Positions 13,273 to 29,339 of a DNA stretch of 29,870 bases are shown in pieces; positions within the stretch are counted from its first letter, which is position 1; each line of letters opens with the position of its first letter. Origin of the DNA: a virus (taxonomy: Duplodnaviria; Heunggongvirae; Uroviricota; Caudoviricetes). Where the stretch lies: positions 1 to 29,870 of the IMG/VR virus record IMGVR_UViG_2703718835_000002. One strand, 5' to 3'. The notes under the pieces were generated by a model, which was given only the letters and a program-made list of their open reading frames with translations, had not been told where the DNA came from and searched no databases. Both the position numbers and the translations under genes were made by a program.

Positions 13273-14330
13273 TGGGAAAGAGTAAGAAGAACCGCGCTGC
13301 GTCGACGAACCAGATTCAGCATAAAAGCCAGACTTCAGCCGAAGCATTCAGCTTCGGTGATCCCGTTCCAGTACTTGACCGCCGCGAACTGCTGGACTAT
13401 GTGGAATGCGTACAGACAGATCGCTGGTATGAGCCGCCCGTCAGCTTTGACGGACTGGCGCGCACCTTCCGCGCCGCTGTGCATCACAGCTCCCCCATCA
13501 GTGTTAAGCGTGACATTATCAGCAGTACCTATATTCCGCATCGTCTTCTCAGTCAGCAGGCATTTACCCGTTTTGTGCAGGACTATCTGGTTTTTGGTAA
13601 CGGCTACCTGGAGAAGCGCACGAACCGTTTCGGTGAAGTTATTTCGCTGGAGCCTGCACTGGCAAAATACACCCGGCGCGGGCTTGACCTTGAAACATAC
13701 TGGTTTGTGCAATACAGCCTGACGACACAGCCGTATCAGTTCACAAAAGGTAACGTCTTCCACCTGATGGAGCCGGATATCAACCAGGAGATTTATGGTC
13801 TGCCAGGTTACCTTTCTGCCATTCCATCCGCCCTGCTCAACGAGTCCGCCACGCTGTTCCGCCGGAAGTATTACATTAACGGCAGCCATGCGGGCTTCAT
13901 CATGTACATGACCGACGCCGCGCAGAACCAGGAGGATGTGAACAACCTCCGCAACGCAATGAAAAGTGCCAAAGGTCCTGGTAACTTCCGTAACCTGTTT
14001 ATGTACTCGCCTAACGGCAAAAAGGACGGGCTTCAGATCATCCCGTTATCGGAGGTTGCGGCAAAGGATGAGTTTCTGAACATCAAGAACGTGAGCCGCG
14101 ATGACATGATGGCAGCGCACCGCGTACCGCCGCAGATGATGGGCATTATTCCCAACAATACCGGCGGCTTTGGTGATGTGGAAAAGGCCAGCCGCGTCTT
14201 TGTCCGCAACGAGCTGATGCCGCTGCAGAAGCGACTGCAGGAGCTTAACGACTGGCTGGGTGAAGAGGTGATCTGCTTCGAGCCTTATTCTTTACAACTT
14301 GATGAAAGTGCTGATAGCAACAGGGGGTAA
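13272..14330 (+). CDS. Q: Portal protein gpQ
   Basis: P2 Q-like; ATG at 13272 overlaps the P stop (TGATG); the ORF track begins at a TTG one codon earlier. Confidence 0.95.
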   Translation: MGKSKKNRAASTNQIQHKSQTSAEAFSFGDPVPVLDRRELLDYVECVQTDRWYEPPVSFDGLARTFRAAVHHSSPISVKRDIISSTYIPHRLLSQQAFTRFVQDYLVFGNGYLEKRTNRFGEVISLEPALAKYTRRGLDLETYWFVQYSLTTQPYQFTKGNVFHLMEPDINQEIYGLPGYLSAIPSALLNESATLFRRKYYINGSHAGFIMYMTDAAQNQEDVNNLRNAMKSAKGPGNFRNLFMYSPNGKKDGLQIIPLSEVAAKDEFLNIKNVSRDDMMAAHRVPPQMMGIIPNNTGGFGDVEKASRVFVRNELMPLQKRLQELNDWLGEEVICFEPYSLQLDESADSNRG

Positions 14331-14333
14331 TGT

Positions 14334-14696
14334 ATGGGATGGATCGGCGTTGATCTGGATGGCACGCTGGCGGTGTACCCGCCAGAGAGCGGGGCGCTAA
14401 TAGGTGATGCCATTCCCGGCATGGCGGAAAGGGTCCGCAAATGGCACAAGGATGATATTGAAGTACGAATTTTTACCGTCCGGGCTGGTTCGCGTGCCGG
14501 AGTGAAGCAAGTTAAAGCCTGGTTGAAAGCCAATGAACTGCCGGACCTGATGGTGACGAACGTTAAAGACAGCGGCATGGTGGAATTATGGGATGACAGA
14601 GCGATACGTGTTATCCGTAATACCGGTTCAGTATGCGCCGGTTGCAACGGCACATCGCAGTTCCACCACCATTCAGGAGATTTCACCAACTGCTGA
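14334..14696 (+). CDS. Hypothetical 120-aa protein with HAD-like motif I (VDLDGTL), coupled to Q
   Basis: ATG 3 nt after the Q stop, SD GGGGGT; N-terminal GWIGVDLDGTLA resembles the DxDGT phosphatase motif I, but the protein is short for a full HAD fold. Confidence 0.6.
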   Translation: MGWIGVDLDGTLAVYPPESGALIGDAIPGMAERVRKWHKDDIEVRIFTVRAGSRAGVKQVKAWLKANELPDLMVTNVKDSGMVELWDDRAIRVIRNTGSVCAGCNGTSQFHHHSGDFTNC

Positions 14697-14728
14697 GCCG
14701 GCAGGCATTCCGTTAACCATAACCTGAG

Positions 14729-14763
14729 CGCCTCAGCAGCATTCTGCGGGGCGCTTCTTTTTT
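14729..14763 (+). terminator. Rho-independent terminator after the P-Q-ORF120 operon
   Basis: GC-rich interrupted hairpin (GCGCC..GCAG-catt-CTGC..GGCGC) followed by TTCTTTTTT. Confidence 0.5.
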
Positions 14764-14850
14764 GCTGCCGCTCCCTCACCCTCACCGATTGAAGCCGCCA
14801 GCGTGCCGGAGATTGCGCCGGATTTTCACCATTTCACCCCGTTGCGCGCG

Positions 14851-14869
14851 CTCGTATCCCCGCCACGCC
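14851..14869 (-). other. Candidate cos cohesive-end site (P2/186-like 19-mer)
   Basis: Reverse complement GGCGTGGCGGGGATACGAG shares its first 13 nt with the P2/186 cohesive-end sequence as I recall it (GGCG.GGCGGGGAAAGCA.); located just beyond the portal gene as in P2. Confidence 0.35.
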
Positions 14870-14913
14870 TGCCCGCTTTATGTAGTGGTTTTCATGCACC
14901 TGCATGATCTACG

Positions 14914-14938
14914 CAAAAGCCCACCAGTTCTGGCGGGC
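14914..14938 (-). terminator. Rho-independent terminator for the leftward DinI-family operon
   Basis: Minus-strand GCCCGCC-agaact-GGUGGGC hairpin (one G.U pair) followed by UUUUG. Confidence 0.4.
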
Positions 14939-15073
14939 CTTAGCAAAAACGATCCTCAAACAATCATGCGATCTCATGCGGCATAGACATGCACTACAGA
15001 GCTAACGCCTCGCAAGGGTTCGTTGTTCAACCTTGCTGACGCCAGAAACAAGTTCAGACGCCAGCAACGTTTC

Positions 15074-15307
15074 TTAATGCAGCCAGCTGTCGTCTTCCCA
15101 CACCTTCTGCATAATTTTCATCACTTGCTTCCTTTCTTCGTCCAGTTGCAGTCCGGTCAGTTCCACACCGTTAGAGCTACCTTTGCGGATACGAATTACC
15201 GTTTTGGGATACAGGGGGCGCAGATTACGGTAAAGCTCGGATTCAAGGGCGTCCAGGGTAGACTGGCTAATCTTCTGCTCTTTATCGATCATTATTTCAA
15301 TGCGCAT
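15074..15307 (-). CDS. DinI-family protein (SOS-inducible; 186 Tum-like position)
   Basis: Start taken at MRIEIMIDKEQ with SD GAGGTGA; ..LDALESELYRNL...VIRIRKGSSNGVELTG...KQVMKIMQKVWEDDSW is DinI-like. Confidence 0.8.
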   Translation of the reverse strand: MRIEIMIDKEQKISQSTLDALESELYRNLRPLYPKTVIRIRKGSSNGVELTGLQLDEERKQVMKIMQKVWEDDSWLH

Positions 15308-15317
15308 AAAAGTCACC

Positions 15318-15506
15318 TCAGCTGATGACATCCATTGAGCGGTTGTATTCGTGGCTTCTGATTTTTGCCATGAGTTCATCAGTCAATTCAGAAACCCACT
15401 GCAGAGCCAGTCCCTTCTCTTCATCACTACACTCACTGGCCGCTACAAGCTTAAGAAAAAAATCAATGCGCTGGAGCTTCAAAGACTCCAAAAAATAGTC
15501 CTGCAT
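15318..15506 (-). CDS. Hypothetical 62-aa protein, first gene of the LexA-controlled operon
   Basis: Strong SD AGGAGG 5 nt before ATG; directly downstream of the LexA box. Confidence 0.55.
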   Translation of the reverse strand: MQDYFLESLKLQRIDFFLKLVAASECSDEEKGLALQWVSELTDELMAKIRSHEYNRSMDVIS

Positions 15507-15549
15507 CTTTCCTCCTATGACACCACACGCAATACTGTATGCATAACCA

Positions 15550-15565
15550 CTGTTTATAATTACAG
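15550..15565 (-). promoter_or_regulatory. LexA operator (SOS box) overlapping the promoter of the ORF62-DinI operon
   Basis: CTGT-ttataatt-ACAG is a perfect CTGT-N8-ACAG with AT-rich spacer, 40-55 nt upstream of the ORF62 start; TTTACA -35-like hexamer upstream on the minus strand. Confidence 0.7.
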
Positions 15566-15659
15566 TATATAATAATCTTACTGATGTAAAACGTTTTTTT
15601 ACGTTTATCAGCCTGATATGCCTGGTATTATTAAGAGCACGAATGGTTAACCATCGTAA

Positions 15660-18074
15660 TTAATACAGGTTTCGCCACTTATCATCTTCCTGCAAACGCT
15701 GGTTCCGATAGAAGATACGCAGGCCTGCTCCTGACGGAATACTGCCGCCGCGAAGGAGTAAATCGACCTCTTTCTCGCTACCATCAAACCCTCTGGACTT
15801 CAGCTCATACACGAGCTGCTGTCGCTGATGGTCTGTAATTCGCTGTTTGTAGTCTTTACGCCGTTTCGGTTTAACCAGGTGTAACCTTGCTGCCAGTTCC
15901 CGGCGTTCTTTTTTGCTCATACTGTGCAGGTAATCGTGCAACTCCTTGTCATCCATGCGGGTGATATCCGTTCTGGTATCCCCATCAGCTGATTTGTCTT
16001 TCCCTTGTTGGTTCAAATTTTCAGCAAGGGGACAGTTATTGCCACGAGTCCAAGGGGCGCAAGCGCCCTGGTCGGCTGCCGCCTCCTGAACGTCAACGGC
16101 CTTACGAACCATTTTCCACTTCACGGCATGAGTGCAGATCTTGCCCTCTGCAATAGGTGACCAGATGCCATAAATACGAATGCCGTGATCGCCATAGGCG
16201 GTCGGCTCTTCGTTGATTTCATAAGCAGTTCTGATGAGGTGATATTTACGGGGAACCAGTACGCCGCCCTGCTTCATGATGTAGGTGGCAAAACAACCAG
16301 CATCAGCAGCAGCCAGGATTGCATCAAGCCGCGGGTTATCCAGTACCGGCGCACCTGCTTTTTTGTCACCCTGTTGCCTTGCCGCCTGACCAGCCAGCAA
16401 TCGCAGTTCACGGTAAGCCTGACGCCCCGGAATGCCAAAGAAGCGGAATTGCTGAACACGATGCAGAGACGCCCAGGCATTCACGTATTCAGCGTTATCA
16501 CGCAGGGATTTACCCGTTTCCTTGCTGATCTCGCCAGCCAGACCACGCCCGTCAATGTTCTTACTGATATATTTCGCGATGTAGCTTGTCGGCGTTCCTT
16601 TGCGCGGGTTAATCAACTCAGACTTAAAGCGTGGTCCCGTGTTATTCCCCAGCTCCTCGCGGTCTTCACGAATGGCAAACTTACGCAACAAAGCAGTAAT
16701 GGCGCGGCGATCTTTTTTGCGCATAAAACACAACAGGTGCCAGTGAACTGTACCGTCATGATGCGGCTCAGCCACCCGCACGCCATACCAGCGCAATCCG
16801 GCTTTGTGCATCGCCTTACGAAATGCAGCAAACATGCCAACCAGATAATCACTGCTTTGTCTTACCGTCGCATTTGTCCAGGTCGGGTTGGGCCTGCCGT
16901 TATTTAGCGTGGAATGGAAACGTGACGGACAGGTGATGGTGTAGAAAACGGCGCAGTCACCGCGCATTTCCGCGATAAGCTCCAGGCCTTTAACACAGGC
17001 CATCATCTCATTGCGGCGATGCGCAGGGTTGCTGCTGCTGGCGTTTACCACATCCTCCATGTCCAGCGTGTCGCCGTCTTCGTTCACCAGTTCATGAGAA
17101 CGGAAAAACTCCAGCGACTTACGGCGCTGCTCACGTTTATGCATCACGGCTTCATAGCTGACATAGGGAGATGCTTTTTTGCTGACCAGACAGACAGCAC
17201 GCAACTGCTCTTCCCGCCATTCGCAACGCATCTTCCATAATTTCCGATACCACCAGTCGGCGCACAGCATACGCGCCAGCGAACCCGGAATGAGTTCATA
17301 GGGCACAGGTTTGCGGCGGTTTCTTTTCCGGCGGAGTTGCTCAAACGCAGGCGGTATGACATCCAGTCGCAGGGTTTCTGCTGCCACCTTTTCCCATGTC
17401 TTGCGGATTTCTTCCGGCTTAACATCATCGGAGGCGTACAAATCACCACAAGCGGCATCAAGACACATGCTCATATGCGCAGCGACAAGGGTGGACAGGC
17501 GTTTCACCTGATCCTGACTCATTTCAGGCAGGATCAGCAGACCGTCCAGCCCTTCATGGCTTGCCATAAAACGAAAAGATGCAGATAGCTGGCTGTCGCG
17601 TACATGCTCCAGTCGTTCCAGGCATGGCTTAATCGTCTCACGCAAATAGCGGGAATAAGCCTTTGGCCTGCCCAGGTTGCTGAAGTATTTAATACGTTGC
17701 ATCAGCGGCTTGCTGATATGGGAAGGCTGGGCGTTGACATCCGCCAGAATGACCATGTCTGGATTAAAACGCTGCTGCTCATGCGCCAGCTTTGCCCGGC
17801 TAATTAGCTTATCCTGCTCCATTTCGCGCTGGACAGGATCACGGGATTCATTAAAGAAATAACGCTCCCAGACCTGATCACTCAGTGCCTCGCGGCGCAG
17901 TTGTTCCTGCTCGTTATCGGCAGCGTACAGAGTGATCAGGTTTGAAAGCGCAGAAACCGGCGCAACTTCCGCCGGGTCCAGATAAGGGTTAATGGCCTTT
18001 TTCGGGCTGTTCCATGAGAATGCTGCGGCAGCCTCGTTAAAGCCGCAGCAGTTGTTCATATCGGCATGACTCAT
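15660..18074 (-). CDS. A: Rolling-circle replication initiator / endonuclease (P2 gpA, 186 RepA family)
   Basis: 804 aa; contains ..[11 protein letters not shown].. (HUH-like) and ..[14 protein letters not shown].. (catalytic Tyr region) typical of the P2 A family. Confidence 0.9.
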
Positions 18075-18928
18075 GCACGTACTCCGTACACGGCAGAACT
18101 GTCCACGCCACGCGAATAATCAAATCCCACCCAGCAGCGCGGCCCGGAAACAGCAATGATTTCTGTTGCTGATTTACCCTCGCCAGCTGCCACACCGATG
18201 TTGCGTTTTGCCTTGATGTAGTGGTGAGTAAAATTGCGATACAGCGAACGGATCAGGGATGTGTCACTGTTAGAAACAATGACCGGATGTCCTTCTGATG
18301 ACCGATGTTCAAGAACGGATGCCAGGTGATACTGGTCATCTTCAGTGAAGCCGTCAGTGTGATAACCGGAAAACGTGCCGTCATACGGCGGATCGCAATA
18401 CACCACATCCCCCGCCTTCAACATCGCCAGCGTTTCATCAAAGCTGGCGCAGATAAACGTTGCCCGCTGGGCTTTTTCTGCAAATGCGCGAATTTCTTTT
18501 TCAGGGAAATACGGATTTTTATAATTACCGTAGGGAATGTTGAAATGCCCGCTCTTGTTATAGCGACATAAACCACGGTAACCGTGACGATTGAGATACA
18601 GGAAATATACCGCTTTCATGAAATCAGTAATTTCAGTAGAGTAATTAAACTCCTGCCTTATGTTGTAATAAGCCACCTCCCTGTTTGCGATCTCAAATAA
18701 AACTCTGGCGCGAGATATAAACGATTCACAATCAGCGGCAACCTTTTTATAGAGGTTGATTAAATCAGGATTAATATCCGCAACCAGATAGCTGGGGTAA
18801 TCCGTCTCCATCATCACAGCACAGGAACCCGCGAAAGGTTCAACCAGTCGCGGGCCAGCAGGAAGGTGTTTTTTCAGTTCGGACATAATGGCGGTTTTAT
18901 TTCCCGCCCATTTCAGGATGGTGCTCAT
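18071..18928 (-). CDS. dam: DNA adenine N6-methyltransferase (Dam-like)
   Basis: Start taken at [11 protein letters not shown] with SD GGAGGTG; motif I ..FAGSCAV.. and motif IV DPPY; start and stop overlap neighbours by ATGA. Confidence 0.9.
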
Positions 18929-19152
18929 ACAGCACCTCCGTTGTAATGTTTGCCTTTCAGCTCTGCGATTTCCTGACAGGTAATGCAAAGCTGCACACCT
19001 GGAATGGCGCGGCGGCGTGCTGGCGGAATTGGCGCTTCACACTCAATGCAAAGCACGCGGGACACGCCCGGCGTTTTGGCACGGGCAGCACGGATATGGC
19101 GCTGGCGTTCTTCTTCAACGCGCTGCTGTACAAGATCCATTGCATCAGCCAT
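18925..19152 (-). CDS. TraR/DksA-family C4 zinc-finger protein
   Basis: 75 aa with CIEC-x17-CITC (Cys4) and an N-terminal helix. Confidence 0.75.
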   Translation of the reverse strand: MADAMDLVQQRVEEERQRHIRAARAKTPGVSRVLCIECEAPIPPARRRAIPGVQLCITCQEIAELKGKHYNGGAV

Positions 19153-20875: not shown

Positions 20876-21508
20876 ATGATACAAGTAAAAGCTGGCGAGA
20901 ATACAGGGGGAAGAGAGGCTATCCATAGGCTAATGGCAGCCTATGATTTCAAGTCCAGACAGCAACTTTGCGATCACTTGGGCGCATCAAAAAGCACTAT
21001 GGCAAACAGATACTTAAGAGATAGTTTTCCTGCAGAATGGGTGATTCAGTGCGCTTTGGAAACAGGAGTTTCTTTACTGTGGCTAACTACCGGACAGGGC
21101 GATCCAGGTTCAAACATTGACCCTAAAAAAAATATCAATTCCGTGAACTCTAGCAAAGTTAAACCTCTTTCGGAGCTTGTATCTCCTGAAATTGACAAGG
21201 CAACTCTCAACGGAGGTTTGCTGATCGATGCTGGAAAAGCAATCATTGATAGCAGCATACTCCCCTCAGACTCAAGCAACCTGCTGCTGGTGACTACTTC
21301 TGGTGATTCTTATTTAATAGATCGCAACCAAACACCACCAGTAAATGGTACGTGGTTAGTGGACATCGACGGGATAAAAAGCATTGTAAAATTGACACGA
21401 CTCCCGGGAAACAGATTAGTAGTGCATCAGGATGATTCATCGTTTGAGTGCGAACTGGATGACATTGAGGTAATAGGCCGCGCACTGAAAATCATTAAGA
21501 GCCTTTGA
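20876..21508 (+). CDS. cI: CI immunity repressor (186-type)
   Basis: 210 aa; N-terminal HTH-like region (..QQLCDHLGASKSTMANRYL..) plus a C-terminal domain; immediately upstream of int. Confidence 0.85.
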   Translation: MIQVKAGENTGGREAIHRLMAAYDFKSRQQLCDHLGASKSTMANRYLRDSFPAEWVIQCALETGVSLLWLTTGQGDPGSNIDPKKNINSVNSSKVKPLSELVSPEIDKATLNGGLLIDAGKAIIDSSILPSDSSNLLLVTTSGDSYLIDRNQTPPVNGTWLVDIDGIKSIVKLTRLPGNRLVVHQDDSSFECELDDIEVIGRALKIIKSL

Positions 21509-21509
21509 T

Positions 21510-22523
21510 ATGACCATCAGAAAACAGCCGAACGGAAAGTGGTTATGTGAATGCTACCCAAACGGGCGAGATGGCAAACGCGTACGCAAACAATTTGCGA
21601 CGAAAGGCGAAGCCATTGCGTTTGAGAATTTCACCATGGACGAGGTAAACAAGAAACCTTGGCTGGGAGAAAAGGAAGATCGGCGACACCTATCAGAATT
21701 AATTGAGCTGTGGTATTCCCTGTATGGTCAAACACTCGCAGACCCCAAGCGACTCATGGCGAAACTTGGAATTATCTGTAATGGTCTGGGCGATCCCATC
21801 GCTTCAGAGCTGACTGCCGGTGACTTTACGAAATACCGCGAAGCAAGGCTAAAAGGTGAAGTGCGAAATGAAGATGGCACGCTGATGTCGCCCGTTAAGC
21901 CCCGCACGGTAAACCTTGAACAGCGCAATCTATCATCTGTGTTCGGTACATTAAAAAAACTAGGACACTGGTCAGCACCAAACCCGCTGGCAGGACTTCC
22001 GACCTTTAAAATTGCCGAAGGTGAGCTGGCTTTTCTTTCCACGGACGAAATCAAGCGCCTGTTGGCGGCATGTGCTGAATCTCAAAGCCCTAGCTTACTA
22101 ATGATTGCAAAAATATGCCTGGCTACTGGCGCACGGTGGAGTGAAGCCGAAAATCTGCAGGGCCATCAAATATCGAAATACCGAATTACTTATACAAAAA
22201 CAAAAGGCAAGAAAAACCGTACTGTGCCGATATCTCAGGATCTGTATGATGAACTCCCCAAAAACAGAGGAAAGTTATTCACGCCATGCAGAAAAGCCTT
22301 TGAGCGGGCAGTAAAGCGGGCCGGTATTGACCTACCGGAGGGCCAATGCACCCACGTGCTTCGCCATACATTCGCCAGTCACTTTATGATGAACGGCGGA
22401 AACATACTGGTACTGCGTGATATTTTGGGTCATGCCGATATAAAAATGACCATGATTTACGCCCACTTTTCGCCCGATCACCTTGAAGACGCGGTGACTA
22501 AAAATCCTCTTTATAATTTGTAG
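21510..22523 (+). CDS. int: Tyrosine integrase (P2/186 family)
   Basis: 337 aa; C-terminal ..HVLRHTFASHFMMNGGNILVLRDILGHADIKMTMIYAHF.. contains the R..H-x-x-R...Y catalytic signature. Confidence 0.95.
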   Translation: MTIRKQPNGKWLCECYPNGRDGKRVRKQFATKGEAIAFENFTMDEVNKKPWLGEKEDRRHLSELIELWYSLYGQTLADPKRLMAKLGIICNGLGDPIASELTAGDFTKYREARLKGEVRNEDGTLMSPVKPRTVNLEQRNLSSVFGTLKKLGHWSAPNPLAGLPTFKIAEGELAFLSTDEIKRLLAACAESQSPSLLMIAKICLATGARWSEAENLQGHQISKYRITYTKTKGKKNRTVPISQDLYDELPKNRGKLFTPCRKAFERAVKRAGIDLPEGQCTHVLRHTFASHFMMNGGNILVLRDILGHADIKMTMIYAHFSPDHLEDAVTKNPLYNL

Positions 22524-22535
22524 TGGAGACCTATT

Positions 22536-24056
22536 GTGATTCAAAAATTAGATATTCAATCTGATGCGGTTGCAAAGTTAAGAATGGATGCTATTCGTTC
22601 AGAAATCCAAGGTTATTCCCCTGATTTATTTATCGAATTCTGTATGCAATATAACTTACAAAAATTTGAAGATAATATCCACATGTTACGACACATGCCT
22701 TGGATTGTTAATTTATGTCTAAAGTGGTCTGCGTCAGTAACTGGCAAGAATAAAAAATTCAAAATCCTCGATAAAAATCAATCAATAAAACTCTTCCAAA
22801 AAACTTATGAAACCTTGAACATTATTCCTATCGGTCTTGAGAGGAAGAATGGCATGCATTTCTTCATTAGAAATAATCTATACCAACAAGGAATCTACCA
22901 GAAAATTGACGCTCTAAACACAATTAGCAGACAAGTCTTTCTATTTTCAGAACTTGAAAAAAACCATAAAATAAAGACAAGTTTTTTTACTATCACGAAT
23001 GTATCTATCGAAGACTTTCTTAAGCTATCTTACATATTAATAACTCACATAACAGAAGAGCATCCCGTGAGAAAAATGAATGTAGATACATTTACTATAT
23101 TATTTGACATCATTCCTAGAAATACCATTGAGAAATTTCTTGATGCAATATCAATAAATTACAATGAACTATCTACATTTTGCAAATCTAAAACCTATGA
23201 TAAACCTTTGCTTGAATACTACTCATCATCACCTTTTCTTGAAAAACCATTAATAAAAAAAGGTTCAGAGTATTTTCAGATACACACACAACTGACTTCA
23301 ACAAGCATACAGACGTTCATATATGATCTTTTAAGAAGAACTGATGCCGAGAAGTTCATGGATAGCTTTGGAAATGTATTTGAAAATGCACTGGAATTAA
23401 TACTAAAAGAAAGCGAAATTGATTTTCATAACGAAAAATACCTTAAAGAACGACTACCTAAAGATAATAAAGTAGTTGATTATTTCATTCCACATACTGA
23501 GGCAAATATTTTCATTGATGCTAAAGGCGTTGAGATACACCAAAAAGGCATGGTAACATTACGCCCTGAGGATATTGCAGGAAAAATAAAGAAATCGGTA
23601 TTAAAAGCAATCGAACAATCTCACGAAGTTAATCGAGAAATATACTCTAATGAGCGAATAATAGCTCCATTCAGGGCTAACTCATATATCATTTGCATTA
23701 CATATAAAAACCTTTTCTTAGGCAATGGTAGTATCCTAGCTAATACTTATGCTAAAGATGAGATGAATAAGATATATGACAAGTTTAAACATAACTATCA
23801 TATCCCTACAGAGAATATTTTTTGTCTATCATTTGAAGAGTTTGAATATCTCATTGCATCATGCAAAAGGTTTAAAATTCCGCCTCATGAAGTCTTGCAA
23901 TCTGCAGTTGAAAAGAACAAAAAACCATCAAGTGCTGCTTTCCTATTTTCCCACCATATAGAAGACTATTTTGATAGAGTAGTCAATTCAGTCATAGTCA
24001 ATGAGGCAGGCATTAAAATGGTAGATTCTATTATCAATAAATTAAAGCCTGAATAA
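22536..24056 (+). CDS. Hypothetical 506-aa AT-rich cargo protein with a PD-(D/E)xK-like motif; candidate lysogen-expressed defence/exclusion gene
   Basis: GTG start 12 nt after the int stop with GGAG SD; composition sharply AT-rich versus the prophage backbone; residues about 283-330 read E..E...hhD(315)-x12-D(328)xK(330). Confidence 0.7.
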   Translation: MIQKLDIQSDAVAKLRMDAIRSEIQGYSPDLFIEFCMQYNLQKFEDNIHMLRHMPWIVNLCLKWSASVTGKNKKFKILDKNQSIKLFQKTYETLNIIPIGLERKNGMHFFIRNNLYQQGIYQKIDALNTISRQVFLFSELEKNHKIKTSFFTITNVSIEDFLKLSYILITHITEEHPVRKMNVDTFTILFDIIPRNTIEKFLDAISINYNELSTFCKSKTYDKPLLEYYSSSPFLEKPLIKKGSEYFQIHTQLTSTSIQTFIYDLLRRTDAEKFMDSFGNVFENALELILKESEIDFHNEKYLKERLPKDNKVVDYFIPHTEANIFIDAKGVEIHQKGMVTLRPEDIAGKIKKSVLKAIEQSHEVNREIYSNERIIAPFRANSYIICITYKNLFLGNGSILANTYAKDEMNKIYDKFKHNYHIPTENIFCLSFEEFEYLIASCKRFKIPPHEVLQSAVEKNKKPSSAAFLFSHHIEDYFDRVVNSVIVNEAGIKMVDSIINKLKPE

Positions 24057-24188
24057 GTCTCCCAAGCAAAACCAGTGGCGGCATTTTGGCGGCAGAGCAT
24101 TAAAAATGCGTAAAACAGACAAACACAAAATAATACTAACACACTGATTTTAAACATAAGTTCATGTTTTTGTTATAGTAAAAATGGT

Positions 24189-24233
24189 ATGTAGGAATTT
24201 CGGACGCGGGTTCAACTCCCGCCAGCTCCACCA
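24189..24233 (+). other. ssrA: attR core: duplicated 3'-terminal about 45 nt of the tmRNA gene ssrA ending in CCA
   Basis: ATGTAGGAATTTCGGACGCGGGTTCAACTCCCGCCAGCTCCACCA matches the ssrA 3' end (T-arm and acceptor stem) as recalled; upstream sequence is unrelated AT-rich phage DNA. Confidence 0.75.
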
Positions 24234-24362
24234 ATCATGATTGGACGGTGTAAGGACAACACCAACAAAAACAGTAAGTTAGAAGTCTCAGCAAAACACC
24301 GACCAGACGGTGAGGAGACATAAAAGGATACGCAAAGGAGCCGCGGCTCCTGGTAACATGAA

Positions 24363-24385
24363 AGCCCACAGATGTGGGCTTTTTC
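24363..24385. terminator. Bidirectional rho-independent terminator downstream of ypjA
   Basis: AGCCCACA-ga-TGTGGGCT hairpin followed by TTTTT on the plus strand; 9 nt beyond the ypjA stop. Confidence 0.55.
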
Positions 24386-24393
24386 GTTGATGG

Positions 24394-27300
24394 TCAGAAC
24401 GACCAGTTCACACCAGCTACCGCGTTCCACGGGGATTCCACACCGGCACTATGGCTATACCCCACCCCAAGATGCCCGCTTAACGTACTGCTGAATGAGG
24501 CTTTAATACCTGCCTGGTATATTCCACGTCTGCCCGACAAATAATTGACGAAATTACCGTCACTATTCACTTTCACCCGGTTATCATCGACAAATTCTTT
24601 GCGCACAGCCGCCTTCAGCCACGGCTCAACTTCCATACCGTTCCCCAGACGCATGTTGTAACTCAGCGTTGCGCCCAGTTCACGATATATACTGCGGGTA
24701 TCGACTGATTTCGATTTCATGCCATTGGATAAATGATATTCGGGGTTATCAGCGGTGAACCCCGTTAACGATGCATACGGCGTCAGGTTCCAGTTACCAT
24801 CGGTAAATCGCATCCCGGTTTCAATGTGACCGCCCAGCCCGTTGCTGTGGTAACTGCCATTGGCGGCTCCACCGCTGCTCATTTTACCTGCTACGTTACT
24901 TTTAAAACGGTTCAGCTTCACGACACCGTCCAGATAGAAACCACTTTCATGTTCCCAACTGGCATAGCCGCCCAGAGAATAACTGCCCACACTGCCATGT
25001 CCTCCGCGATCAAAACCGATATGTGAATGGGAATAGCCCATAAAAGCGCCTAGCGTGGTAATTCCTTCAGGAATATCATTACGGCTGTCGATCCCCACTG
25101 TCATTCCGGTCAGCGTCTGCTCAAACCCGGCACCCGCATCGGTGGTGACATTATTACGGGTGTTATACGTCGCCCCCCAGACATTATTGTTGTGTGGACT
25201 CGCTTTCATTATGTTCAACCGCTCGCGAATACTGTTTAGCTCAGCATCAAATACCAACGGTAATGTTGCTGCCATATTGAGTACGGCTGCCGTAGAAGGC
25301 GTAATGCGTTTCTCCGGAACGGGTGTCGGCGTTGGATCGGGAGTAGGGTCTGGTTTTGGATTTGGGTCTGGCTTTGGATCGGGTTTTGGGTCTGGCTTTG
25401 GATTTGGGATGGGGTCCGGGTTGGGTTTGACATCATTGGTCAGGTTCCAGTTGCTGTTGCCGTCACTTTTCAGGACATACTCATAGGTCCCAAGATCAAC
25501 GAAACCGCCGGTATTGCCCAGCGTAAACGAAGCATCCCCTCCCCCTGTTTTCACCAGCGTCATCGCGTCGTCAGACTGTGGGCTGACGCCGGTATCCTGA
25601 ACAAAGATTTTAAAATTACCAGTGGCGTTGTTGTTGACGACCAGTTGATCGCCCCGGGAGCCTGCAACGTTGGTATGCAGGTAGAAATTACCGCTACCGG
25701 AAAGTTCATTGGTTGTCAGCGTATTGTAGATACCGTTAGTTGTGGCAGGCGCTGCTGTTTGTGCTGACAAATAAACATCACCGTCGTTGAGTAGCAAACT
25801 GTTTACTCTATATTCGCAGTTGCTGGTACCTGCACAGGAATTATTGCTGTTAAGCCAGACACTGCCCCGGCTGGCAGCCGTCAGGTCGGCAAGCGTGGTA
25901 TCGACGCCATTTCCCAGAGTCAATGTCGCGCTATCGGTAATCCGGACCGCCCCTTCGAGTTTAACTGGCGTAACATTATCCCGTGGCGTCATTAACGACA
26001 GGCTTCCTGTCGCGCCACTGACCGATGCATCCGCCAGCGTACCTGCGTAGACGATTGCCGTACCGCCAGCGACCTGGAGATCTTCTGCCCGGGCCAGAGC
26101 CTGAAACTCATCTTTTGACCGCCCAAGGGTATATTGCCCGCCAGAGTTAACCTTTGTGGCGGAGTCCTGACCCAGGTTTTGCATTGCCCCACCCTTGCCA
26201 ACCGTGGAGTCGCGAGCTTCGGTACCTGCTAATACCAATAAATTACCGCCATTTTCCAGCAACATATTGGTCGCTAAATTGCCGGAAATGGAAAAAGTAC
26301 CGTACTGGTGAGTACCGCTGATTTCAATACCGTTAGCCGTGCTCGTCTGGAGAGCGGCACCGCTGTTCTGGACGATATCTGTCGCTTTGCCATTATCGTT
26401 GACTGTCAGCGTACCGCCTTCATTGATCTTTGTTTTTATTGCCTCTCCGTTAGCTGAAACTGTTTGTATTCCGCCGTCGTTAATTGTTGTCTCATTCGCC
26501 ACACCCTCGACAATTTGTTCACCGCCGGTGAGCGTCGTGCCTGTCGCAGTGGCTTTTGTTTTGACGATCTCCCGTCCGCCCATATTGACCTGTGTTTTGT
26601 CAGAAGAGGTGTCTGACTCCACGGTTAACACGCCGCCATTTGCCAGCAGGATATTGTTCGCCGCACCCTGCTCGATGCTGAACGCGACGCCATCCGCGCG
26701 TGTTCCTGTGACCCGCGTCGCCCTGGTGGTTGCAACCAAAGCGCCCTGGCTACTCTGCTGTATCCCCGTTGCGCTGCCTTTCTCCCGCACATCGAGTGTG
26801 CCGCCGTCATTAAGCACCGAGTTTTCAGCCAGACCGCCCTCATTAACTACCTGTGAACCCCCATTAATAATGGAACCTTCCGCTGTCCCGTTTGCCATAA
26901 TTTGTTGTAGGCCAGAGACGATATCGGTATTGATTGCCTTACCATAATTCTGAACGGTTTGCGTGCCACCATTGATGTGTGTTTTCTCTGTTGACCCACC
27001 ATCAACAATTTGTTCACCACTTTCGATATTTGCTTCAGTGGCTAAACCATATACCGTTTGCTTGCCACCTTTGATATTTGCTTTATCAGAAGTGGCACTG
27101 GCATATATTGTTTGGGTGCCAGCACTATTGAGTACAGTGCCAACATCTTTTCCATAAACATCCATTTTGCCGTTGGCATTAATAATCGTGTCAACTGCCC
27201 GGGAACCAGTGACGACTGTTAATGAGCCAGCGTTTTCCAGCACTACATTTTTAGCTTCTGAATTCCTGATGTAGAAAGCATCACCATAACTGTTGGTTCC

Positions 27301-28974
27301 TTCGATAAGTGTTCCGGAGGTCGTGGAAGCAATTAATGCGCCGCCGGATTGTTGCTCAACATGCTTAGCCTCACCACCGTCCTGAACCTCCAGAACGCCG
27401 CCATTATTAAGTCTGGTGCTATCTGTTTTAGCCTCCTTCTGGACAATCAGCTTACCGCCAGTATCAATGGTAGTATTTTTCGCCGAGGTTTTAGCCACTA
27501 CCGTCAGTTCGCCGGTATTTTCCAGCACAACATAATTAGCCTCCCCTCCGGTAATAGTGAAGTGAGAGAGCTTGTTGTATCCTTCGATATCAGTCCCTGC
27601 ACCCGTGTTGGCAACTAAAGCACTGCCCGTCTCCTGGTTAACCCCATGTGCAATACCGCCGGTATAGACAATCAGCGAGCCTCCGGCGCTAATATTGCTG
27701 CCAATTACCGTACCATCTTTCTCAACAACCTGCCGGCTCCCGGAGGATATAATTGTTGTGTCAGCTTTCCCGCCGCTTTTGATATTTTGCGTTCCGCTGT
27801 TGATATTGGTGCCTGTGGCTATGCCATAATTATTAATATTCTGTGTGCCACCATTAATTATGGTATTTGTCGCGTTTCCTGCAACATCCATAACCCCGCC
27901 ATTATCTATTCGGGTCGCATCAGCTTTAGCATTGGTTAAAACTGACATTGTTCCTTTATCTTTAATAATCGTCTTGTTTGCCGAACCATATGCGTTTATG
28001 TCTAAATGACCACCGTTTTCCAGCAACACATTGTCTGCCACGTGATTGTGGATGGAGAATGCACCTTCACTATTCGTACCGCTCACCGTCGTACCGTTAG
28101 TGTTAGTTTTTAAAATTGCACCATCGTGCTGGGTAACATTTGTTGCCGTACCACCACTAACATCAAGCACGCCACCAGAATAAACTTCAATAACATCCGA
28201 GGTGCTGGTGTTATCAACAATTTGCGTGCCACCAGAATAGATATGCGTATTTTTTGCCGTTGACTTACTATTCAGAGACTGAGTTCCGCCTTCAATCGTC
28301 GTGTCCAGCGCACGGCTCTCATATACTCTTTGCTCACCGCCATTTTTAATGGTTGTTGTTTCTACTGTGCTCTGTTCAACATACTGTCGACCACCATTTA
28401 TGGTTGTGTTCGTTGCCAGACTTCCTTGTACTACGTCCTGAGAGCCAGACTTATTTATCGTTGTACCATCAGCATGCCCTTGAACTTTTACTATCTGGCT
28501 ACCACCATCAATGAGTATTCCATTCGCACTCCCTCCCTCTACGCGTGAAGCACCGCCCTTAATTGTCGTTCCATTGCTGATACCCCCTTTATAAACGTCC
28601 TGATTGCCACTCTCGATTGTCGTACCTGTGGAAATACCCCCGTCATGAATTGACTGTCTGCCACCGTTAATGGTTGTATTATTAGCCTGCCCCACAAAAT
28701 TGTTATGACTTCCTATATCTTGATATCCACCAGATTCAATAAGACTTCCATTAGATACCCCGCCATGAACATTCTGCTGGCCATGGTTGATAATATGAGT
28801 GTTATTTGTTGTACCTCGTTCATCCACTTTTTGGTTGCCATCTACAGTCTCATCGTTTACCACACCAATAACATTAGTAGTGAAGGCAGCCATCCCGGGC
28901 GGGGCATATATCAAGGCAGATATCAATAAGGAAAGTACTGAGCGGCGACAATAATAGGGACTGGTCCTGTTCAT
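24394..28974 (-). CDS. ypjA: AIDA-I-type autotransporter adhesin (YpjA-like)
   Basis: Start taken at MNRTSPYY (signal peptide ..LISALIYAPPGMAAF); dozens of about 19-aa GG.Q.V..G.A..T.I repeats, Pro-rich linker, C-terminal beta-barrel ending ..GVNWSF. Confidence 0.9.
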   Translation of the reverse strand: MNRTSPYYCRRSVLSLLISALIYAPPGMAAFTTNVIGVVNDETVDGNQKVDERGTTNNTHIINHGQQNVHGGVSNGSLIESGGYQDIGSHNNFVGQANNTTINGGRQSIHDGGISTGTTIESGNQDVYKGGISNGTTIKGGASRVEGGSANGILIDGGSQIVKVQGHADGTTINKSGSQDVVQGSLATNTTINGGRQYVEQSTVETTTIKNGGEQRVYESRALDTTIEGGTQSLNSKSTAKNTHIYSGGTQIVDNTSTSDVIEVYSGGVLDVSGGTATNVTQHDGAILKTNTNGTTVSGTNSEGAFSIHNHVADNVLLENGGHLDINAYGSANKTIIKDKGTMSVLTNAKADATRIDNGGVMDVAGNATNTIINGGTQNINNYGIATGTNINSGTQNIKSGGKADTTIISSGSRQVVEKDGTVIGSNISAGGSLIVYTGGIAHGVNQETGSALVANTGAGTDIEGYNKLSHFTITGGEANYVVLENTGELTVVAKTSAKNTTIDTGGKLIVQKEAKTDSTRLNNGGVLEVQDGGEAKHVEQQSGGALIASTTSGTLIEGTNSYGDAFYIRNSEAKNVVLENAGSLTVVTGSRAVDTIINANGKMDVYGKDVGTVLNSAGTQTIYASATSDKANIKGGKQTVYGLATEANIESGEQIVDGGSTEKTHINGGTQTVQNYGKAINTDIVSGLQQIMANGTAEGSIINGGSQVVNEGGLAENSVLNDGGTLDVREKGSATGIQQSSQGALVATTRATRVTGTRADGVAFSIEQGAANNILLANGGVLTVESDTSSDKTQVNMGGREIVKTKATATGTTLTGGEQIVEGVANETTINDGGIQTVSANGEAIKTKINEGGTLTVNDNGKATDIVQNSGAALQTSTANGIEISGTHQYGTFSISGNLATNMLLENGGNLLVLAGTEARDSTVGKGGAMQNLGQDSATKVNSGGQYTLGRSKDEFQALARAEDLQVAGGTAIVYAGTLADASVSGATGSLSLMTPRDNVTPVKLEGAVRITDSATLTLGNGVDTTLADLTAASRGSVWLNSNNSCAGTSNCEYRVNSLLLNDGDVYLSAQTAAPATTNGIYNTLTTNELSGSGNFYLHTNVAGSRGDQLVVNNNATGNFKIFVQDTGVSPQSDDAMTLVKTGGGDASFTLGNTGGFVDLGTYEYVLKSDGNSNWNLTNDVKPNPDPIPNPKPDPKPDPKPDPNPKPDPTPDPTPTPVPEKRITPSTAAVLNMAATLPLVFDAELNSIRERLNIMKASPHNNNVWGATYNTRNNVTTDAGAGFEQTLTGMTVGIDSRNDIPEGITTLGAFMGYSHSHIGFDRGGHGSVGSYSLGGYASWEHESGFYLDGVVKLNRFKSNVAGKMSSGGAANGSYHSNGLGGHIETGMRFTDGNWNLTPYASLTGFTADNPEYHLSNGMKSKSVDTRSIYRELGATLSYNMRLGNGMEVEPWLKAAVRKEFVDDNRVKVNSDGNFVNYLSGRRGIYQAGIKASFSSTLSGHLGVGYSHSAGVESPWNAVAGVNWSF
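25338..25410. repeat. Tandem 24-bp repeat (about 3 copies) encoding the PKPDPKPD linker of the autotransporter
   Basis: TTGGGTCTGGCTTTGGAT occurs at 25362-25379 and 25386-25403 with a degenerate copy upstream. Confidence 0.4.
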
Positions 28975-29339
28975 AAATTTCATCCTCTGAAAAGTGAATA
29001 CTGAGTAGCGTTTAAGCGACCTTAGCTTTGCTGCAACATCAGCCCACAGGCACCAGACCAGGGGATTCATCCTGAAGAGACAGCGCAAGTGTATTGTGTT
29101 CACCGCTCATCAAAGACATCATGATGAAATGATGATATTCCGCATAAGAATGAGGCATTTTTTAAACGCAGTGCGCTGAAGTGTGGTTGGATAAAAAAGT
29201 CAATCCATTCAGGAAATACGGGCGTATTCTTTTCTTTCGACAATGAGGCCGTTGGCAAAATAAAATGATTTACATAATCGTTTCTGATGAATATCTTCTG
29301 CTCACATAAAAATCACACAATAACTTTGAGATCGCAGAT

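Follow-up and report, generated by a model that had tools for sequence, protein, structure and literature searches.

Organization of the locus

We analyzed a 29,870-nucleotide (nt) stretch of viral DNA (Caudoviricetes; positions 1 to 29,870 of IMG/VR record IMGVR_UViG_2703718835_000002), hereafter the window, with the focus on a 506-amino acid (aa) open reading frame (ORF) that lies between the integrase gene (int) and the attachment (att) core of a prophage. This ORF is almost certainly a defense gene of the GapS1 family, and we refer to it as gapS1. As judged from its cI–int module and gene order, the prophage is Fels-2-like (Felsduovirus, Peduoviridae), and related cI–int modules are found in about 205 complete Escherichia coli genomes. 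The genes cI, int, and gapS1 follow one another on the same strand and are succeeded by the attP arm and the att core (Table 1). In a near-identical locus (L001), the counterparts of cI and int are annotated as "phage repressor protein CI" and "site-specific integrase," respectively.

The int stop codon TAG (22521–22523) is followed by T-GGAG-ACCTATT and a GTG start codon at 22536, with a 7-nt spacer between GGAG and GTG; that is to say, the 506-aa ORF, its GTG start 12 nt past the int stop, and the GGAG in the gap are all present as described in an earlier note on this DNA. The same GTG start is used by RefSeq in the near-identical genome NZ_CP067399.1. The ORF does not occur by chance because it comprises 506 codons in 31% G+C DNA and has 1577 family representatives. 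The G+C content is 0.313 in the gapS1 ORF, 0.477 in int, 0.439 in cI, and 0.532 in the remaining prophage genes. The sharp drop in composition reported in the earlier note was thus reproduced, whereas its value of more than half for int was too high. The cargo module is composed of a 12-nt leader, the ORF, and an 18-nt trailer.

Table 1. Coordinates of the features in the window
Feature	Position	Strand	Basis
gpA	15660–18074	-	
cI repressor gene (186/Fels-2 type), first in the lysogenic operon	20876–21508	+	ORF; L001 annotation; Phage_CI_repr in homologous loci (Pfam)
Tyrosine integrase gene (int), start 1 nt past the cI stop	21510–22523	+	ORF; annotation; 94% aa identity to Fels-2 Int
int–gapS1 junction, 12 nt, Shine-Dalgarno GGAG at 22525–22528	22524–22535	+	Sequence
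Entire cargo module, 1551 nt, G+C 0.316, int stop to attP arm	22524–24074	.	Comparison with 12 empty-slot loci
gapS1, 506-aa GapS1/GAPS1-family anti-phage protein	22536–24056	+	NF047931 match; RefSeq gene name gapS1
PD-(D/E)xK nuclease core, about residues 271–400	23346–23735	+	
E283, catalytic candidate	23382–23384	+	
D315, catalytic candidate	23478–23480	+	
D328, catalytic candidate	23517–23519	+	
K330, catalytic candidate	23523–23525	+	
E333, catalytic candidate	23532–23534	+	
Conserved attP arm, starts GTGGCGGCATTTTGGCGGCAG	24075–24188	.	Alignment and arm search; common to filled and empty relatives
att core at attR, 45 nt identical to the ssrA (tmRNA gene) 3' end	24189–24233	+	Comparison with intact ssrA

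The cargo gene belongs to the GapS1 family

The ORF product matched the NCBIfam model NF047931 (antiphage_GapS1) with 427.1 bits against a curated cutoff of 320 (E = 8e-128), and the match extended over the full model (residues 20–474 of the protein over model positions 1–455 of 455). As in GapS1/GAPS1, a single protein of ~500 aa carries a PD-(D/E)xK domain toward its C-terminus. The protein is identical at 505 of 506 residues to "MULTISPECIES: GapS1 family protein [Enterobacteriaceae]," which is recorded on at least 1000 contigs, and 12 Klebsiella phage records encode it at 99.4% aa identity. The gene was present at 99.7–99.8% nt identity in 15 of 5426 complete E. coli genomes, most of the 15 carrying the gapS1 annotation. 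An exhaustive profile search retrieved 1577 cluster representatives at E ≤ 1e-3, and most of the matches listed were ~500 aa in length and matched over their full length. These results establish the family membership left open by the earlier note; the family has already been described and RefSeq already names the gene, so neither is new.

PHROGs assigns the protein to phrog_14259 ("unknown function"). A Pfam scan of the protein gave nothing significant (the best hit, TPD, was below the threshold with E = 0.029 and was dismissed), and it revealed no domain of the P-loop, helix-turn-helix, or transmembrane kind, in keeping with the reading made from the sequence alone. Membership in 2 other groups was rejected: Shedu (DUF4263), with no domain match and only the generic fold in common, and the Mrr or modification-dependent restriction enzymes, for which the Pfam scan showed no Mrr_cat or modification-reader domain.

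Conservation and fold of the nuclease core

Alignment of 17 homologs, with identities down to 28%, revealed that E283, E300, D315, D328, K330, and E333 are invariant. D315, D328, and K330 are the residues at which the PD-(D/E)xK core had previously been proposed. An AlphaFold2 model built from the alignment was confident (predicted local distance difference test score 87.6; predicted template modeling score 0.88) and displayed the α-β-β-β-α-β core of the PD-(D/E)xK superfamily, with the D…(D/E)xK residues on the second and third strands. The architecture of the protein is a mostly helical N-terminal part plus a PD-(D/E)xK phosphodiesterase core.

A Foldseek search with the model gave a single match below E = 1e-3, the protein Upx (PDB 9wuf), and no relative of solved structure emerged when PDB sequences were searched with a profile. 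Upx, which reportedly senses terminase, is likewise an anti-phage protein of the PD-(D/E)xK kind, but it has 2 nuclease domains in 1212 aa and no detectable sequence similarity to the window protein. Such similarity was also absent from Shedu SduA, which is distinguished by its DUF4263 domain, and from Can2/Card1, which require cyclic oligoadenylate and a CARF domain.

For comparison with a characterized member, the Vibrio GAPS1 peptide was reconstructed by joining and translating published mutagenesis primers. The reconstructed peptide reads DNKIQGKVV-[D313]-FLHQRNGTSIFID-A-[K328]-GVEPNQKI, and the window protein over the same stretch reads DNKVV-D315-YFIPHTEANIFID328-A-K330-GVE. D315, D328, and K330 are the equivalents of D313, D326, and K328 in Vibrio GAPS1, and both the motif and the 15-residue D-to-K spacing are identical. 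The 3 residues that had been singled out for mutation therefore map onto those of a characterized protein. Among the prophage-borne variants, the mean pairwise identity is 0.59–0.64 in the nuclease core and 0.43–0.53 in residues 1–240 and 451–506. This divergence pattern would fit, without proving, a location of specificity determinants outside the catalytic core.

Comparison with characterized relatives

Mahata et al. (bioRxiv 10.1101/2023.03.28.534373) described GAPS1 in a Gamma-Mobile-Trio island of Vibrio, where it is a cargo gene. The Vibrio protein acts as a single protein with the PD-(D/E)xK domain toward its C-terminus, and either D313A or K328A ends protection against T7 (10.1101/2023.03.28.534373). 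T7 escapers carry substitutions in the capsid protein Gp10, rebuilt I217T and V247A phages escape, and expression of Gp10 alone in GAPS1-positive cells stops growth with viability kept (10.1101/2023.03.28.534373). Three E. coli homologs protect a surrogate host, and in isolate ZH142-A the endogenous homolog, at native expression, is needed for protection and gives growth arrest at high multiplicity of infection (10.1101/2023.03.28.534373). The single-gene superinfection-exclusion or abortive-infection profile ascribed to the window gene in the earlier note is thus that of its family, an experimentally shown single-gene anti-phage defense whose outcome is arrest of the infected cell.

GAPS1 of Vibrio parahaemolyticus VPaI-6 (WP_005477165.1) resembles the window protein in (i) its NCBIfam family; (ii) its length of ~500 aa; (iii) the location of the PD-(D/E)xK core in the C-terminal half; and (iv) the VVD-x12-IFIDAKGVE motif, whose spacing is equal in the 2 proteins. 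By contrast, their overall identity is low, and the carriers differ, with a Gamma-Mobile-Trio island for the Vibrio gene and a prophage for the window gene.

Two of the validated E. coli homologs are closer. EJP5250929.1 is P0210 and is 57.7% identical to the window protein; WP_152927281.1 is 100% identical over 126 compared residues to P0004, which is 77.5% identical overall to the window protein. Both homologs protect E. coli against coliphages, and the clusters P0004 and P0017 show the cI–int–GapS1 arrangement of Fels-2-like prophages (the P0210 context was read from its cluster representative, P0017). They are, however, different alleles, with the highest divergence in residues 1–240 and 451–506, and their phage specificity may differ.

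Klebsiella pneumoniae holds 78% of GAPS1 homologs, and the family paper is silent on prophages (10.1101/2023.03.28.534373). The Phold paper presents a GAPS1-like protein of the Klebsiella prophage ST437-OXA245phi4.1; we found this homolog to be 48.6% identical to the window protein and located directly after int. An INPHARED survey counted 12 phages with GAPS1 plus Lamassu, which agrees with the 12 Kp48xx records that encode the window protein.

The int–att interval is a variable cargo slot

We surveyed the interval between int and att in 6 annotated relatives and 80 IMG/VR loci, in which the integrase is 76–100% identical (at least 91% in all but one). The IMG/VR loci are redundant, so the cargo counts below are not frequencies. 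An arm of ~115 nt (ATGGCGGCAxTTTGGCGGCAG...) that runs into an identical core is common to all relatives. Both the int end and the arm were available in 51 loci, the window included; 12 of these were empty, and 39 were filled with 650–2386 nt. In the empty loci, which include Fels-2, XH992, and APEC-O117H42, the gap between the int stop and the arm is exactly 3 nt, and the distance from that stop is 136 nt to a 26-nt core probe, equivalent to 117 nt to the 45-nt core. Because the empty relatives have only these 3 nt, the 1.5 kb of the window fills an otherwise empty position. The earlier statement that this slot is normally empty is borne out in Fels-2 and 11 other loci.

The mean G+C content of the slot is 0.335, as against 0.481 in int. 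That the AT-rich cargo was acquired separately, as previously argued from composition, agrees with the finding that the slot is empty or otherwise filled in relatives; among the ssrA prophages compared, the interval is variable and gapS1 is not an invariant gene. The cargo comprises an unannotated family, C1, of 395–412 aa with a weak RES-like signature (25 ORFs); a second unannotated family, C2, of 324–373 aa plus shorter fragments (24 ORFs); GapS1 alleles 48–100% identical to one another (7 ORFs); an anti-phage dCTP deaminase on the opposite strand (6 ORFs); a family of 207–222 aa, C5 (4 ORFs); and an SMEK-domain protein, a pair of a dCTP-deaminase-like protein and ThyX, and an IS5 (one each). 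Conserved flanks thus enclose non-homologous cargo that includes GapS1, the dCTP deaminase, the SMEK-domain protein, and unannotated families, as in a defense hotspot.

All 4 enterobacterial GapS1 clusters whose context was examined, as well as the 7 survey loci, occupy this single, nucleotide-precise slot of Fels-2-like prophages, and P0004 (77% identical to the window protein), P0017 (57%), and P0022 (49%) all show the cI–int–GapS1 arrangement. A Photobacterium homolog with 31% identity is carried by a chromosomal island that also contains an AAA_15/AAA_21 ATPase and a fragment of an integrase. The difference between this island and the prophage contexts indicates that the GapS1 family moves between kinds of mobile element, with its enterobacterial branch tied to this slot.

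Variable, AT-rich, defense-rich cargo positions are known in P2-like prophages (Rousset et al. 2022, PMC9122126; 2026 preprint 10.64898/2026.02.27.708500), and the int–att hotspot has already been listed (10.64898/2026.02.27.708500). The 2 classical hotspots differ from it in location, being the gpA–portal interval and the late-gene region. Compared with the published hotspots, the insertion point is set here to the nucleotide (int stop plus 3 nt), and most of the cargo is unannotated.

An example of C1 is WP_001429732.1 of LF82 (L006:5138–6340). The second commonest cargo, C2 (L057:7017–8135, L064:7023–8051, L026:7033–8028, and ~20 other loci), is very divergent, with 24–35% identity, and had no match in Pfam, NCBIfam, or PADLOC. 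Its alignment consensus appears by eye to be hydrophobic in the N-terminal third (...PLFSFIYFG.F.W.GHSP...LPLLILASSVPLASIV...), a pattern suggestive of a membrane protein that acts in superinfection exclusion or abortive infection. The dCTP deaminase (NF041025, PADLOC dCTPase) was found at L019:7031–8785 on the - strand and in L037, L079, L031, L086, and L021, in each case convergent with int; some slot cargo therefore cannot use the cI–int transcript. In L071 (7044–8608), the slot holds a dCTP-deaminase/dUTPase-like protein paired with the FAD-dependent thymidylate synthase ThyX. Two cargo genes are stacked at L040:7014–9674 (C2 then GapS1) and at L044:3418–5799 (C2 then C1), which indicates serial insertion at one junction.

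Probable expression from the lysogenic operon

The geometry of the locus suggests that gapS1 is most likely the third cistron of the cI–int lysogenic transcript, so that its product would be present in lysogens. The cI–int and int–gapS1 spacings are 1 and 12 nt, respectively, and the 12-nt junction is too small for a separate promoter. A scan found no terminator-like site on the + strand between int and gapS1. Non-coding sequence is nearly absent from the module, and in the 39 occupied loci the + strand cargo ORFs start within a few nt of the int stop or overlap it. The switch of phage 186 is laid out in the same way; there, an int–lacZ fusion reports leftward lysogenic transcription (PMC7708051), and the attP arm contains sites for Int, IHF, and Apl (PMC7498355).

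Alternatively, gapS1 could lie outside the cI–int operon, being driven by its own promoter in the 3' end of int or being silent in lysogens. A sigma-70-like sequence does occur within the 3' end of int (22361–22390, 9 of 12 positions matching), and AT-rich cargo is a classic target of H-NS, which would favor silencing. The 13 promoter-like matches found are nevertheless at the chance level (10.8 expected from shuffling), and an own promoter is difficult to accommodate at a position where cargo ORFs abut or overlap the int stop and hardly any non-coding DNA exists. Silencing is disfavored by the endogenous E. coli homolog, which protects at native expression. We therefore consider expression outside the operon improbable.

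Proposed mechanism and alternatives

In the model that we favor, to which we assign a probability of roughly 0.85, gapS1 is a prophage-borne gene co-transcribed with cI and int whose product is a capsid-triggered nuclease that arrests the growth of the superinfected lysogen. GapS1 would be made in the lysogen and stay inactive before superinfection. The major capsid protein of an infecting phage would then activate it, and the PD-(D/E)xK site (D315, D328, and K330, probably with E283 and E333) would cleave nucleic acid. Cell growth would stop, by dormancy and not lysis, so that the competitor phage could not propagate and both the lysogen population and the resident prophage would be protected. 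Family membership, fold, active-site conservation, slot variability, and insertion boundaries come from the present analysis, and the homologs described in the literature provide the anti-phage activity, its dependence on the active site, the capsid trigger, and the dormancy. For this allele, we infer the trigger, the phage range, and the co-transcription with cI–int; by analogy, its trigger and outcome are somewhat more apt to match those of Vibrio GAPS1 than to differ.

Several points weigh against this model. The capsid trigger and dormancy have been seen only in Vibrio GAPS1 with T7, and Vibrio GAPS1 is just 24–29% identical to the E. coli homologs (10.1101/2023.03.28.534373). The co-transcription is deduced from geometry only, and the sigma-70-like match within int could be an alternative start, although matches of this kind are at the chance level. 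Finally, among the tools named in the earlier note as ways to check its proposal, Foldseek led to the PD-(D/E)xK defense protein Upx but a scan of PADLOC-DB v2.0 returned no match. However, this database is from 2023 and the GAPS1 preprint version is dated 2024; the miss is an effect of the database date and no argument against a defense role.

The restriction-enzyme-like fold also allows GapS1 to be viewed as a restriction enzyme or nickase that destroys the incoming phage genome directly, with the N-terminal part as a DNA-recognition module. Vibrio GAPS1, however, arrests growth in response to the capsid protein alone, without phage DNA, and the escape mutations lie in the capsid gene and not in DNA sites or modifications. 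The native E. coli homolog at high multiplicity of infection likewise gives growth arrest instead of normal growth. The type IIS enzymes and nickases N.BspD6I, R.BspD6I, and FokI are only ~10% identical to the window protein and differ in that no pairing with a cognate methyltransferase is implied for GapS1 and that the GapS1 family is activated by a protein trigger and not by a DNA site. Direct attack on the phage genome is thus unlikely, although less so than expression outside the operon.

The earlier note had also speculated on a methylation-state-sensing endonuclease, of the Mrr or Sau3AI kind, paired with the Dam methylase of the prophage. The prophage does contain a DNA adenine methylase gene (18071–18988, - strand), and the PD-(D/E)xK fold class is common to Mrr-type enzymes. 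Against this pairing, (i) Pfam shows neither Mrr_cat nor any other modification-reader domain in the protein; (ii) the same Dam-carrying backbone has an empty slot or unrelated cargo in other prophages; (iii) GapS1 homologs occur with no neighboring Dam in the Photobacterium locus and the Vibrio Gamma-Mobile-Trio island; and (iv) homologs work when expressed alone in E. coli, and the published trigger is a protein. The backbone, the Dam-free contexts, and the protein trigger all speak against the speculation, which found no support and which we regard as extremely improbable. Capsid-triggered growth arrest is therefore retained as the preferred reading.

The prophage, its att site, and the adjoining chromosome

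NZ_CP067399.1 contains the same prophage, with an intact ssrA adjoining smpB at the opposite (ogr) end. Because intact ssrA sits at that end, the att copy in the window is attR. Neither ARAGORN nor Rfam detected a complete tmRNA in the window, where only 45 nt of ssrA are present. The chromosomal gene past attR is the autotransporter gene ypjA, a 1569-aa ORF (24394–29103, - strand) that corresponds to the chromosomal autotransporter adhesin YpjA/EhaD. Between attR and ypjA, an inverted repeat (24361–24386; AAAGCCCAC-AGAT-GTGGGCTTT) followed by a short T run was missed by the consensus scan; it resembles a bidirectional intrinsic terminator and could stop read-through from the prophage.

The cI–int–gapS1 block (20876–24056) was compared with K. 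pneumoniae phage Kp4845-2 (OK490395.1) and 11 sisters. The identity is 99.9% in cI–int and 99.4% at the aa level in GapS1, as against ~96% at 87% coverage elsewhere in the prophage. This points to a module of immunity, integration, and defense that was recently shared or recombined across genera (E. coli/Klebsiella).

Within the prophage sequence that the window contains, GapS1 is the sole recognizable defense cargo. The interval from gpA to the portal gene (14330–15660), a classical hotspot of P2, is nearly empty, with a 120-aa ORF (14334–14696) and a DinI-like 101-aa ORF (15074–15379). Close relatives have an AAA ATPase, DUF262, AIPR, or S8 peptidase gene elsewhere in the prophage; this cargo is probably located at the gpA–portal hotspot, the position of the AAA ATPase being shown in L001.

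Some genomes have a second integrase directly past attR (L088:6885–11530 and L093:6868–8097). In L088 it is accompanied by a Psu gene and an nSTAND1/Mrr_cat (Avs-like) protein, which indicates a P4-like satellite with its own defense cargo, in tandem with a helper-type prophage at ssrA. At the other end, outside the window, a hypothetical gene of 160 aa separates intact ssrA (attL) from ogr (L097:11192–11674), and the ssrA–ogr interval at attL may be a second att-adjacent cargo position.

Significance

The value of these results lies mainly in annotation: a reading of the sequence alone arrived at a PD-(D/E)xK defense nuclease and its catalytic residues, and these are those of the published GapS1. 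Earlier work already covers the family with its nuclease domain and catalytic residues, and the int–att hotspot is also listed. Our small additions are the insertion point at the nucleotide level, the occupation of this slot by the clusters of the validated E. coli homologs, and the finding that most slot cargo is unannotated. C1 and C2, the 2 commonest occupants of the slot, are unannotated and are reasonable candidates for defense screens.

We tentatively extend this to a joint proposal, less probable than not, that the slot is an operon-fused third-cistron position for lysogen-only cargo and, separately, that C1 and C2 are undescribed single-gene defenses. If the third-cistron position is real, a capsid-sensing nuclease would be on in lysogens and its synthesis would end when the switch flips, which would help the prophage's own capsid protein to avoid triggering it during induction.
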